A stretch of DNA of 64,000 bases from Candidatus Magasanikiibacteriota bacterium (GTDB taxonomy: Bacteria > Patescibacteriota > Patescibacteriia > Magasanikbacterales > GWA2-37-8), in the NCBI GenBank assembly GCA_041666745.1, contig JBAYGI010000002.1:36291-100290 (forward strand), written 5' to 3'. The notes below the pieces were generated by a model. That model did no database searches, was not told where the DNA came from, and worked only from the letters and a program-made list of their open reading frames with translations. Shown one piece after another: positions 4,209 to 41,728 of this stretch (positions are counted from its first letter, which is position 1; the number at the start of each line of letters is the position of its first letter). The translations under genes were made by a program, and so were the position numbers.

Positions 4209-4261
4209 TTTCTGCGAAACTTGAAATTACATCGAGTTTCGCAAAAAGAAATAAATTTCTT
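4209..4261 (+). promoter_or_regulatory. Structured intergenic leader between rplN and rplX: 13-bp hairpin (TTTCTGCGAAACT ... AGTTTCGCAAAAAGA) followed by a small AT hairpin AAGAAAT-AA-ATTTCTT and T-run
   Basis: Inverted repeats read directly from sequence; this 86-nt gap is the only large intergenic gap in an otherwise tightly packed ribosomal operon. Confidence 0.3.
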
Positions 4262-4282
4262 TTTAACTCAACTCTAGTAATT

Positions 4283-4591
4283 ATGAAAATTAAATCAAAC
4301 GACAAAGTAAAAATTATTAAGGGCAAAGATCGCAACAAAGAAGGCAAGATTATTCAGGTTTTTCCAGTTGCCGGTAAAGTTGTAGTAGAAGGATTGAACT
4401 TAATGAAAAAACATTTACGCACTCGTAAAGCTGGAGAAAAAGGACAGGTAATTGAGTTGTCCGCTCCGGTACGCGTAGAAAATGTTTCATTAATTTGTCC
4501 AAAATGCAATCGCACTACTCGCGTTGGTTTTAAATTAGATGGCAAAGATAAAAAACGCGTTTGCCGCAAATGTAAAGAGTTTATTGATTAA
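4283..4591 (+). CDS. rplX: 50S ribosomal protein L24 (KOW) with C-terminal CxxC...CxxC zinc-ribbon variant
   Basis: MKIKSNDKVKIIKGKDRNKEGKI... KOW; C-terminus ICPKCNRTTRVGFKLDGKDKKRVCRKCKEF aligns to the usual ...PTRVGY..DGKKVRV... tail but with four Cys. Confidence 0.9.
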   Translation: MKIKSNDKVKIIKGKDRNKEGKIIQVFPVAGKVVVEGLNLMKKHLRTRKAGEKGQVIELSAPVRVENVSLICPKCNRTTRVGFKLDGKDKKRVCRKCKEFID

Positions 4592-7257: not shown

Positions 7258-7698
7258 ATGAAATTAGCCATCCATACTCTCAAGGCATCCAAAGGCTCAC
7301 GCCATACCGCCAAAAAACTTGGTCGTGGTAATGCTTCCGGTCATGGAAATTATTCCGGGCATGGTGGTAAAGGACAAACCGCTCGTTCCGGTGGTAGTCG
7401 TGGTTTGAAATTGAAAGGTTTCAAACGTTTGATGCAATCCACTCCAAAATTACGTGGTTTTACCAGTATTGCTACTAGACCATCCGAGGTTTATTTGAGT
7501 GATTTGGAAAAACACTTTGCGGTTGGTGAGATCGTAAATTTGATAACTTTGAAAGAAAAAAACATCTTGTCCGCTTCAGTAAAAACTGCTAAAATAGTAG
7601 GGACAGGAGAATTAAAGAAAAAATTGACAGTTGAAGGTATCAAAACAACTGCCAGCGCCAAAGTCGCTATCGAAAAAGCCGGAGGAGAAGTTAAATAA
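7258..7698 (+). CDS. rplO: 50S ribosomal protein L15 (follows S5 directly; no L30 gene between)
   Basis: ...GRGNASGHGNYSGHGGKGQTARSGG... L15 glycine-rich motif. Confidence 0.9.
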   Translation: MKLAIHTLKASKGSRHTAKKLGRGNASGHGNYSGHGGKGQTARSGGSRGLKLKGFKRLMQSTPKLRGFTSIATRPSEVYLSDLEKHFAVGEIVNLITLKEKNILSASVKTAKIVGTGELKKKLTVEGIKTTASAKVAIEKAGGEVK

Positions 7699-8998: not shown

Positions 8999-9108
8999 TC
9001 AAAAAAACACAGGTTACAACCACCTTTTCGCTTTTTTTGCCCGCGAGGGCAAAAGGATGAGCCTCGGCTCATAACCCGCTCAAAGGTAATTGTAACCTGT
9101 GTTTTTTT
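8999..9108 (+). ncRNA. Unclassified structured RNA / terminator-embedded conserved element, copy 1 (A-run, 13-bp outer stem ACACAGGTTACAA/TTGTAACCTGTGT, ~70-nt conserved core with GCGA-tetraloop hairpin and CUCG hairpin, U-run)
   Basis: Near-identical core repeated at 41602-41671 with completely different but perfectly paired outer stem and compensatory changes in inner hairpin (TGCCC-GCGA-GGGCA vs CAGCC-GCGA-GGCTG). Confidence 0.5.
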
Positions 9109-27502: not shown

Positions 27503-28483
27503 ATGGTAGAAGGGTACAAACACAAACCATCATCAGTAGGAGATAAATTAAGAGGAGTTGCTGGTAGAATAGCGATGTTAGGAGGCGCGGCAGGTTTGCT
27601 TGGTGGCGTTGAACAGGTTGGTGAACACAGAGGAAAAGAGACTGCTCAAGAAAAAATTATGACAGGAAAAAATAAAAAAGAGGATAATACAAAAAATTTG
27701 GAGCAAGAAGTGGAAAATCGTCAGATGCATGTGATCAAAGAGATAGATCAATGTATACATGAATTAGAAAAAATCCCAAAAAATTTAAGTGTATCAGAAT
27801 TGTCTGATGTGACATTAAAAATGGAAAACATTCTTGATAATTATATTCAGTGGGCTTTTGATGATACTGGAGAACAAACAGATAATACAATTTTGATTTT
27901 AGGGAAAATACGCGAATTTGCTACAAAAATTGCCGAAGGACATGTTGATGAAGAAGATGAAAAAAACCAATTTAGAGCATTTATCACAGGAGATGGTGTG
28001 CTGGCCTACGAGGCAAAAAAAAGTCCGGATTTTAACATAATGGTTAATGAAGTAATAGCCAAAAAACGACTTGAGTTGATGGAATTTAAAAGATTATTTC
28101 TTACAGCTTTTAATAATAGGGATTTTCAAAGAGCAACAATTTACAGTCGTGATATTATATTCCTTGCGGAACAAATTTCGGGTTTGACTGCTAGTATGTA
28201 CTATGAAAAAGCAGACAGAGCAAAGTTTGGTAGTTATTATAGAAAAAGTGGAGAATTAGGTTTGGGAAGGGGTTTGGATTTGCATAGAGTCAGAGAACAT
28301 GTTAGTGAAATATCACAAGGTTCTCCAGAAGATTTTACTCGACCAGAATTTCTTACACCCCATGAAATAGATACTTTTATTGATATGCCAAAGTCAGGTT
28401 CGTCAAGAAAAACAGAAGAAGAAATCAGAATGCAAAAACAAGCCGATGAAAATAGTCGTGGCACGAGTCCGGCATTTGATTAA
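27503..28483 (+). CDS. Hypothetical protein (326 aa, no recognised domain), downstream of G9-tract promoter
   Basis: ATG ORF with host-like codon usage; acidic/Lys-rich; bracketed by promoter and strong terminator. Confidence 0.5.
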   Translation: MVEGYKHKPSSVGDKLRGVAGRIAMLGGAAGLLGGVEQVGEHRGKETAQEKIMTGKNKKEDNTKNLEQEVENRQMHVIKEIDQCIHELEKIPKNLSVSELSDVTLKMENILDNYIQWAFDDTGEQTDNTILILGKIREFATKIAEGHVDEEDEKNQFRAFITGDGVLAYEAKKSPDFNIMVNEVIAKKRLELMEFKRLFLTAFNNRDFQRATIYSRDIIFLAEQISGLTASMYYEKADRAKFGSYYRKSGELGLGRGLDLHRVREHVSEISQGSPEDFTRPEFLTPHEIDTFIDMPKSGSSRKTEEEIRMQKQADENSRGTSPAFD

Positions 28484-28488
28484 AAAAT

Positions 28489-28521
28489 AAAGCCGGCTTA
28501 CAAATAGCCGGCTTTATTTTT
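28489..28521. terminator. Bidirectional Rho-independent terminator (AAAGCCGGCT-tacaaat-AGCCGGCTTT flanked by A-run and T-run)
   Basis: Perfect 10-bp stem between convergent genes. Confidence 0.65.
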
Positions 28522-36211: not shown

Positions 36212-36250
36212 AAACTCCGCAAAACAACTTGCGGAGTTTTTTTATTTTTC
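36212..36250 (+). terminator. Rho-independent terminator of pheT (AAACTCCGCAA-loop-TTGCGGAGTTT + T-run)
   Basis: 11-bp stem then TTTTTTATTTTT. Confidence 0.7.
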
Positions 36251-41194: not shown

Positions 41195-41581
41195 ATGTTT
41201 ACAAACTCAAAAGATATTTTATATTTAGTTATTTCGTTTTGCGTGCTGTGGGTGACTTTTTTCTTGTGTTGGATGTTTTATTATTTGATGCGTTTGTTGC
41301 GCAATGCCAATGAGATCGTCGAGGAATTTCGGGTGCGACTGCAGACTTTGACCGAGGCTATAAATTATATTCGCGGAAAAGTGGAACACATGTCCGGTTT
41401 GATGACTTTGATTACTGACGGCGCTTCCGGTTTGATTCAAAAAGTAATCGCCAAAAAAACCCACGAATGGGTAGAGGATGGATCCGAAAAGATAAATAAA
41501 AGCGCCAAAGAGGCGGTGGCTAGGGCAGTGGCTGTGACTGCTAAAAAAATGAAGAAAGCTACTAAGGCGATCAAAAAATAA
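41195..41581 (+). CDS. Hypothetical small membrane protein (1 TM + helical Lys-rich tail)
   Basis: ATG at 41195 preceded by AGAGGGG RBS; TM LYLVISFCVLWVTFFLCWMFYYL. Confidence 0.5.
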   Translation: MFTNSKDILYLVISFCVLWVTFFLCWMFYYLMRLLRNANEIVEEFRVRLQTLTEAINYIRGKVEHMSGLMTLITDGASGLIQKVIAKKTHEWVEDGSEKINKSAKEAVARAVAVTAKKMKKATKAIKK

Positions 41582-41690
41582 TAAAAAATACGCACATATA
41601 ACCACCTTTTCGCTTTTTTCAGCCGCGAGGCTGAAAGGATGAGCCTCGGCTCATAACCCGCTCAAAGGTAATTATATGTGCGTATTTTTT
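41582..41690 (+). ncRNA. Unclassified structured RNA / terminator-embedded conserved element, copy 2 (outer stem ATACGCACATATAA/TTATATGTGCGTAT)
   Basis: Core 41602-41671 matches 9020-9089 except compensatory changes in GCGA hairpin; flanked by A-run and U-run. Confidence 0.5.
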
Positions 41691-41699
41691 ATTATTTTT

Positions 41700-41728
41700 T
41701 TGACTGTGGATAAGGTTTGGAGTATGAT
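41700..41728 (+). promoter_or_regulatory. Sigma70-like promoter TTGACT-N17-TATGAT for gdh
   Basis: Consensus-like hexamers ~30 nt upstream of start. Confidence 0.45.

Follow-up and report, generated by a model that had tools for sequence, protein, structure and literature searches.

Two copies of a structured element

The window, the whole stretch of 64,000 nucleotides analysed here from a Candidatus Magasanikiibacteriota bacterium, carries two copies of a structured element, both on the forward strand. Copy 1 (9001..9108: A-run and arm, Y-shaped core, arm and T-run) begins 17 nt past the stop codon of secY (8984) and is followed by recG, which starts at ~9177. Copy 2 (41573..41700) comes after a hypothetical ORF of 148 amino acids, the last codons and TAA stop (41579-81) of which lie inside its 5′ arm, and precedes the gene for a Glu/Leu/Phe/Val dehydrogenase (gdh), a gene neighbourhood that agrees for both copies with the one given in an earlier note on this DNA. 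Directly after copy 2, a sigma-70-like promoter match for gdh (TTGACT-17-TATGAT, 41700..41728, forward strand), which is a consensus match only and is located outside the repeat, supports a presumptive terminator position of copy 2.

The 5′ arm of the outer stem P1 of copy 1, AAAAAAACACAGGTTACAA (9001..9019), forms 19 of 19 Watson–Crick pairs with the 3′ arm TTGTAACCTGTGTTTTTTT (9090..9108), which has a run of seven T at its end. In between lies the conserved core (9022..9087), which encloses a three-way junction and is built from the helix P2 (ACCTTT 9022-27 / AAAGGT 9082-87), a TC/TC internal loop (9028-29 / 9080-81), the helix P2b (GC 9030-31 / GC 9078-79), the hairpin P3 (9033..9056) of 10 layers with a GCGA loop (9043-46) and two invariant U.G pairs at the base, the hairpin P4 with the sequence ATGAGC-CTCG-GCTCAT (9057..9072), and the junction strand AACCC (9073..9077), which is invariant in 115 sequences, in columns that were fixed by the collection search pattern. 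Copy 2 is composed of the same parts, with a 5′ arm of 29 nt (41573..41601) forming 29 of 29 Watson–Crick pairs with the 3′ arm and its T-runs (41672..41700), and a core (41604..41669) consisting of P2 (41604-09 / 41664-69), the TC/TC loop (41610-11 / 41662-63), P2b (41612-13 / 41660-61), P3 (41615-38, with GCGA at 41625-28), P4 (41639-54) and AACCC (41655-59).

Direct reading of the sequence bears out the proposal that the same ~75-nt core is present at both loci: 38 nt (9052-9089 and 41634-41671) are identical, with 0 matches expected from 100 shuffles, and P4 as well as the ACCTTT/AAAGGT helix do not differ between the copies. The P3 stems, TGCCC/GGGCA versus CAGCC/GGCTG, are distinguished by three adjacent pairs around the GCGA loop, all of them compensatory as had been noticed, and the outer arms are indeed perfectly complementary within the copies and unrelated between them (19 bp in copy 1 and 29 bp in copy 2, A/T runs counted). 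From the description of the outer stems as covarying, the complementarity stands; the difference between the window arms is not strict covariation because the arms of the two copies are not homologous, and true compensatory change in the arms is found only between orthologues. The predicted folds amount to -54.1 and -52.3 kcal/mol (z of approximately -10 against dinucleotide shuffles, on both strands), and a covariance model of 115 relatives has exactly two matches in the window, at 90.2 and 88.2 bits, with the next one at 16 bits.

Like canonical intrinsic (Rho-independent) terminators, the element combines a stable stem with a subsequent U-run 3′ of a stop codon, often with a mirrored A-run in a two-way arrangement; the arms of the window copies end with T7 and T6...T7, respectively. 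Unlike in canonical terminators, the place of the apical loop of 3-8 nt is taken by the structured core, and a scan of the window for the standard terminator consensus detected neither copy because the ‘loop’ is a folded module of ~70 nt. Anatomy and position of both copies are, as had been suggested, those of bidirectional intrinsic terminators with a structured insert, from which we infer that the window copies would act in termination. The window also harbours plain terminators (A-run, hairpin, T-run) without the core at 28483-28521 and 36212-36239. The arms of the former, AAAGCCGGCT..AGCCGGCTTT, resemble the arms of copy L021 of the element, and plain terminators and element arms may be related.

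A repeat family of Magasanikbacteria and related Patescibacteria

More copies were sought in related genomes, and more than 115 have been recovered from Ca. Magasanikbacteria and related Patescibacteria MAGs. A first degenerate pattern search matched 16 metagenome stretches and a second pattern, in which most of P2 was left free, more than 105 stretches in species-representative genomes, among the matches listed. The covariance model, built from 115 distinct cores, recognizes 113 matches at E<1e-3 in 780 kb of retrieved loci and 21 further full-length copies in the remaining loci. Nearly all matches are located in Ca. Magasanikbacteria/Magasanikiibacteriota or in unnamed Patescibacteria MAGs, with one weaker copy (L121, 44.7 bits) in Ca. 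Giovannonibacteria; the MAG CAZHYJ possesses at least 13-15 copies.

The view that the element belongs to no known RNA family is upheld by Rfam 15, which gave 0 matches at the gathering threshold across the 64-kb window and, at E<=10, nothing but miRNA-hairpin artefacts that scored well under threshold for a type A copy (copy 1) and a type B copy. Hammerhead, twister, twister-sister, pistol, hatchet and HDV-like ribozymes, riboswitches, SRP, 6S and Y RNA-like families, none of which reached the gathering threshold, were rejected, and so was a tRNA-like element, as ARAGORN predicts no tRNA in the window; positions 1-64000 are thus free of tRNA genes and of Rfam families at the gathering threshold. 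A phage or plasmid origin was equally dismissed, with no blastn match in phage and plasmid collections and with pattern matches in viral contigs that are due to chance (<=16.9 bits) or unrelated. A search of the full-text literature retrieved no account of such an element in Magasanikbacteria or Patescibacteria. On balance, both loci probably belong to a hitherto undescribed family of interspersed repeats, small, palindromic and non-coding, that occurs in Ca. Magasanikbacteria and related Patescibacteria.

With respect to the genomes themselves, the TPA MAGs CAZHYJ, CAYZHG, CAZXEV and CAZXFG (L046, L053, L061 and others) are labelled ‘uncultured Gammaproteobacteria’ and carry this Patescibacteria repeat; they also contain Magasanikbacteria-like genes and a gdh 78% identical to that of the window, and the label looks wrong. 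An independent assembly of the organism of the window (L127, Logan contig SRR6484324_43789, positions 1-27) ends inside copy 2, and the repeat evidently fragments short-read assemblies.

From the outside to the inside, the fold common to the family starts with the P1 arms, which a small internal loop separates from P2 (5-6 bp); a symmetric internal loop, UC/UC, lies between P2 and P2b (GC/GC), a three-way junction with P3 and P4 follows, and the AACCC strand leads from P4 back to P2b. P1 has a median length of 18 bp and arms that are locus-specific or fast-evolving. P3, which comprises ~10 layers, displays the loop GCGA in 73 of 92 distinct cores and otherwise mostly another GNRA loop, with a C-G pair closing the loop, and P4, with 6-8 bp, carries C(YNYG)G loops, namely C(CUCG/UUCG/UGCG/CUUG/UGUG)G. 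In the model-based alignment, in which paired cells amount to 90.7%, 19 of the 24 pairs are altered on both sides, with 437 cells showing double-sided change, and the covariation score of 0.418 compares with 0.139 in shuffles, none of 500 reaching the observed value, and with 0.05-0.13 in slid controls. A conserved structured element with abundant compensatory change, as the earlier note had proposed from two copies, is therewith borne out, and the three-way junction of P2/P2b, P3 with its GNRA loop and P4 is strongly supported.

Approximately 25 unpaired nucleotides are invariant, which is partly imposed by the search patterns, yet the covariance model found no intact copy without them. Two subtypes can be distinguished, type A with a continuous P3 stem and type B with a 3x3 internal loop in P3, which are linked by a switch of the pair 17-53 from U-A to C-G. 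The two U.G pairs at the P3 base are invariant, with three variants (C-G twice, U-A once) that all still pair, and their GG could pair alternatively with the CC of AACCC. A mini-ORF in P4 (AUG AGC CUC GGC UCA UAA) was discarded, as its frame is lost in variants with another P4 length, and so was a helix beyond the TC dinucleotides that flank the arms (‘P0’), the pairing of which is inconsistent.

Gene context, mobility and constraint

According to greedy ORF calls, 47 copies are situated in tandem in sense, 21 in tandem in antisense, 25 between convergent and 7 between divergent genes, with antisense context confirmed by Pfam at two loci, L106 (rsmA and sua5) and L070 (transketolase and a sulfatase-like gene). 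Among 116 copies, 37 possess an A-run and a T-run, 21 a T-run only, 3 an A-run only and 55 neither; 61 of the 116 are counted with a U-run. In the one-way terminators, the U-run is nearly always located 3′ of the plus strand of the core (21 versus 3), and between convergent gene pairs two-way versions occur in 14 of 24 cases. About half of the copies, including both copies of the window, thus look like intrinsic terminators, and because about half have no U-run, termination is not the sole role of the family.

Copies occupy the 3′ ends of genes or lie between genes that are unrelated, among them secY, gdh, rsmA and transketolase, and this is not the placement of a riboswitch or cis-regulatory leader. 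An independent sRNA gene with its own promoter was rejected as no positioned -10/-35 signal is present 5′ of the arms. Orientation set by the direction of replication was rejected as well, as GC skew is no better predictor than the gene strand (81:49) and as two copies 4 kb apart on one contig face in opposite directions.

Non-coding copies are many, and comparison of related genomes demonstrates presence and absence, with 16 ‘empty’ comparisons at orthologous sites and filled versus empty pairs such as L013/L044, window/L107, L128/L133, L042/L049 and L107/L061. For example, the filled site in L013 corresponds in L044 to a plain terminator whose outer stem is the same and whose loop is AATTT. 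The site of copy 2 is filled in the window, in L009, L061 and L128-131, and empty in L107, L132 and L133, where plain terminators are found, and in L134/135, where there is none; at three other sites the empty state is without any hairpin. The idea that the arms are always pre-existing host terminators with the core inserted in the loop fits two sites (L044, L107/L133) and is contradicted by the empty sites without a hairpin, by copies inside rsmA and by unrelated loci with common arms. Replacement has been observed at the secY site, where L090 has a type B core with unrelated arms.

The ends of the element are genome-specific. P2 reads TTTTT/AAAAA in 12 of 13 CAZHYJ copies and TCTTT in 5 of 8 JBAYHH copies. 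In the window clade, CCTTT is present in all 6 copies, including the secY copy, the orthologues of which have CTCTT. This terminal conservation covers P2 and ~5 nt beyond, and the arms farther out contain hardly any sequence information (0.02-0.27 bits). Two copies from the same MAG with non-alignable flanks, L114 and L116, agree in the 5′ flank, in 24 nt of arm and in P2 and possess different interiors (L114:2288-2362 of type B, L116:7506-7577 of type A), and L026 and L119, which have unrelated flanks, have 13 nt of arm in common. Such mosaic copies suggest recombination between copies.

Insertion into a coding gene, as known for RPEs (Rickettsia palindromic elements), is tolerated in rsmA (ksgA, 16S rRNA dimethyltransferase) of two species, where the element with its arms lies in sense with the frame open (L076:4502-4575 on the minus strand, L096:237-310 on the plus strand) and adds ~35-45 residues in a loop that has 6-11 residues in 10 homologues. 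The copies are apparently translated, with a product that reads ..GNVL..CSLFSRASAKGCDCGRITRS..YKVIANLPYQITS.. and is annotated by NCBI as a protein of 318 amino acids. A homologue nearer to L096 than L076 is has no insertion, and the insertion has therefore also been cleanly lost. Furthermore, core and P2 are reversed in L078:3233-3305 compared with L089:1647-1718 and L087:4584-4655, with collinear flanks that are 87% identical, so that both orientations occur at one locus, as in an invertible DNA switch, between species only; recombination between the inverted arms would be the obvious route for such flips.

A target-site duplication is not apparent, no direct repeat of >=3 nt exceeding the shuffled control and only a TC dinucleotide being found in 26 of 116 copies, and no split ends indicative of an autonomous partner or transposase have been found in 952 kb. 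Judged from these comparisons, the family is shown to spread and reshuffle at the DNA level like a MITE or an RPE. The earlier description as the opposite of a MITE is therewith overturned by more than 115 copies that show gain and loss, genome-specific ends, identical arms elsewhere, insertion in rsmA, inversion of the core and both orientations. The related claim of selection on RNA structure is retained for the structural conservation and not for RNA structure as the only cause, given the mobile-repeat behaviour.

On the other hand, copies at orthologous sites are conserved to an unusual degree. At the secY site, four species have the same arms and core, and the 108-nt element is 90-95% identical where the four-fold degenerate sites of secY are only 43-55% identical. 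The stem differences at this site are all compensatory (five double changes compared with L030, one of them in P1) and the remainder falls into loops; the arm of copy 1 is retained in the orthologues L051 and L077, and one compensatory pair is altered in L030. The antisense copies L106/L111/L024, at verified genes, are likewise conserved between orthologues, and in the rsmA copies the codons of the conserved segments are identical in proteins with an identity of only about 60%. No sign of relaxed constraint was seen in antisense copies, which are no less stable than sense copies. To judge from such identities, orthologous copies are under nucleotide-level purifying selection, also antisense to genes and inside rsmA, which is predicted neither by a purely selfish repeat nor by a purely cis-acting terminator.

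Related systems and possible roles

RPEs (Ogata et al., 2000) are listed in PMC3184786. Like RPEs, the family presented here consists of palindromic non-coding repeats of ~100-150 nt that are dispersed in reduced genomes, between genes as well as in frame in coding genes, without a transposase of their own, and the rsmA copies are the same phenomenon as the in-frame insertions of RPEs. Unlike in RPEs, the apical three-way junction is conserved and the long arms are mostly locus-specific; many copies have U-runs at gene 3′ ends, and old copies are under nucleotide-level constraint.

The bcr1 repeat of the Bacillus cereus group (Okstad, 2004; Klevan, 2007) is described in the respective entry of PMC3184786 as a transcribed element of ~155 bp with a conserved outer stem and 5-bp direct repeats, which forms a long stem with two independent stem-loops, shows compensatory changes and has a non-conserved genomic distribution. 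The family shares with bcr1 the nature of a small dispersed repeat and the overall Y/cruciform architecture, but its outer arms differ between most copies and no target-site duplication beyond 2 nt is present. SPRITE, in the same source, is a dispersed repeat of ~105 nt with the appearance, and presumably the function, of a portable intrinsic terminator (PMC3184786). Whereas SPRITE is essentially a terminator hairpin, the family contains an additional three-way-junction core that is conserved, and a U-run is missing from half of the copies.

REP/BIME elements provide another comparison, being, like the present family, intergenic palindromes that occur in either orientation and are enriched at the 3′ ends of genes and between convergent ones. 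REPs, 20-40 nt in length with conserved stems and a 5′ GTAG, have been proposed to stabilize mRNA 3′ ends, and the RAYT (Y1 HUH) nuclease cuts at a conserved dinucleotide that flanks their hairpins. Unlike in REPs, the loop region and not the stem is conserved here, and no RAYT was found with approximate queries in 1.05 Mb. By analogy, the family appears closest in behaviour to RPE, bcr1 and SPRITE, from which it is set apart by the three-way-junction cap, the fast-evolving arms and the unusually strong constraint on old copies. It is a new family of a known kind of repeat and not a new principle.

The reading we favour, with slightly better than even confidence, is that of a new structured repeat similar to RPE, bcr1 and SPRITE which acts as a portable terminator cap and behaves as a small mobile palindromic element. 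Each copy is a long hairpin with the conserved Y-shaped core of ~75 nt at its tip, and the family is gained and lost at orthologous sites, copied with its arms to unrelated loci and inserted in frame in rsmA, with a core that can flip between the inverted arms. Upon transcription, the core would fold first (P3, P4, then P2) and unite the two arm halves, so that the very stable P1 stem would close immediately before the U-run. Roughly half of the family, both window copies included, would thereby serve as portable, often bidirectional intrinsic terminators and 3′-end caps. The ~25 invariant unpaired nucleotides would present a recognition surface for a putative trans-acting factor, either an enzyme that mobilizes the element or an RNA-binding host protein.

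More doubtful is a dedicated host RNA element, with the Y-core as a protein-binding or tertiary-folded module in which, for example, the GNRA loop docks on the P1/P2 boundary. Such an RNA might, as a tentative proposal, act in cis at mRNA 3′ ends and intercistronic sites on stability, processing or termination efficiency, with the repeat-like spread being secondary. This reading accommodates the ~25 invariant unpaired nucleotides together with the near-constant length of P3, the strong purifying selection at orthologous sites and a set of features that point to the plus strand as RNA, namely the GNRA and C(YNMG)G-type loops on this strand, the polarity of the U-run, which tracks the core strand (21 versus 3), the bias to gene 3′ ends, to sense (47 versus 21) and to convergent over divergent context (25 versus 7), and the invariant tandem U.G pairs at the P3 base, with all three variants still pairing. 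However, covariation in the stems is almost exclusively from Watson–Crick to Watson–Crick pair with no wobble preference, and RNA and DNA-level palindrome maintenance are not told apart by it. The core contains 17 G.U against 24 A.C mismatches and distal P1 contains 12 against 36, no helix prefers G.U over A.C, and in antisense contexts A.C mismatches, equivalent to G.U in the host mRNA, occur 10 versus 1. Copies are also conserved in both orientations, with equal stability in those antisense to verified genes and those in sense, the orientation of the core changes between species, one copy lies in frame inside rsmA, and the partner protein is putative only. Altogether, the element can be read as one that must fold whichever strand is read, with its palindrome being maintained in the DNA as well.

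Flanking TC dinucleotides lead to a further reading, in which the element is, by analogy with REP/RAYT or IS200/IS605, a single-stranded DNA substrate of an HUH/Y1-type nuclease; we regard it as unlikely. The hairpin would be cut at the TC that bracket it and integrate beside TTTC in exposed single-stranded DNA such as hairpin loops. In 26 of 116 copies (22%; e.g. L113, L114, L116, L074 and L095), both arms are bordered by TC, as in ..TAGTTTC[arms]TCTTTATT.., and the two ends of one copy tend to carry TC together (33 observed versus 12.6 expected). The core is likewise bracketed, in every copy, by its UC/UC loop (9028-29 / 9080-81 in the window). Such TC flanks could mark where a nuclease cleaves or where the element inserts, or they could be a mismatch motif of the RNA. 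Pairing that is Watson–Crick only, empty sites that retain small AATT-like loops, and the presence of both orientations without target-site duplication are in line with a nuclease substrate, and the loops C(GCGA)G and C(CNNG)G are stable in DNA, too. However, tblastn with IS608 TnpA and E. coli RAYT, with approximate query sequences, retrieved no significant match, and hence no nearby Y1 transposase, in 1.05 Mb, a tiny fraction of the genomes. P3 and P4 are dissimilar, unlike the LE/RE hairpins of IS200/IS605, most copies have no TC flanks, and purifying selection on old orthologous copies is left unexplained.

Quite unlikely, in our estimate, is that the Y-core itself is the active molecule, either a self-processing RNA or a single-stranded DNA/RNA substrate of a dedicated nuclease or recombinase, which would build portable terminators by producing inverted arms of its own or bringing them along, and could be flipped between them. 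If so, genome-reduced CPR bacteria would possess a genome-wide and reversible setting of transcript ends, and the conservation in every orientation and inside a gene would therefore be explained. A new class of small self-cleaving ribozyme or other catalytic RNA carried by the repeat, comparable to the often multi-copy hammerhead and twister ribozymes that occur in both orientations, and suggested by invariant junction nucleotides, multiple copies, a variable outer stem and a topology (helix, conserved internal loop, short helix and three-way junction with two hairpins, one loop conserved) that recalls twister-sister-like architectures, is highly improbable, as no ribozyme family matched even at E<=10 and the in-frame, apparently translated rsmA copies speak against efficient self-cleavage.

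To our knowledge, almost no non-coding RNA or mobile-element biology has been described for bacteria of the Candidate Phyla Radiation, the genomes of which are tiny. The repeat family is abundant, with tens of copies per Mb, strongly structured and conserved between species with saturated synonymous sites, yet at the same time subject to gain, loss, inversion and even translation. It thus offers a tractable case of a selfish palindromic repeat entangled with host transcript 3′-end formation and a model for annotating features that are overlooked by current tools, both window copies having escaped terminator scans and Rfam, and it accounts for assembly breaks in repeat-bearing MAGs. Should the invariant core have an activity of its own or a dedicated partner, a new RNA or single-stranded DNA–protein system would be at hand.

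Other repeats were encountered in the retrieved loci. A different repeat of ~36 nt, TGTCATCCTGATCCGCCAAAGGCACAGAA(A/G)GATCCC, is found in L090 at ~7300-7400 and in L107 at ~4230-4330, both on the contig JAVHSM010000024.1, in opposite orientations. Another palindromic repeat, GTCATTCCCGTACAAACGGGAA ... TTCCCGTTTGCACGGGAATGAC (L133:2715-2805), occupies the spacer between gdh and fpg; in relatives, this spacer is empty.
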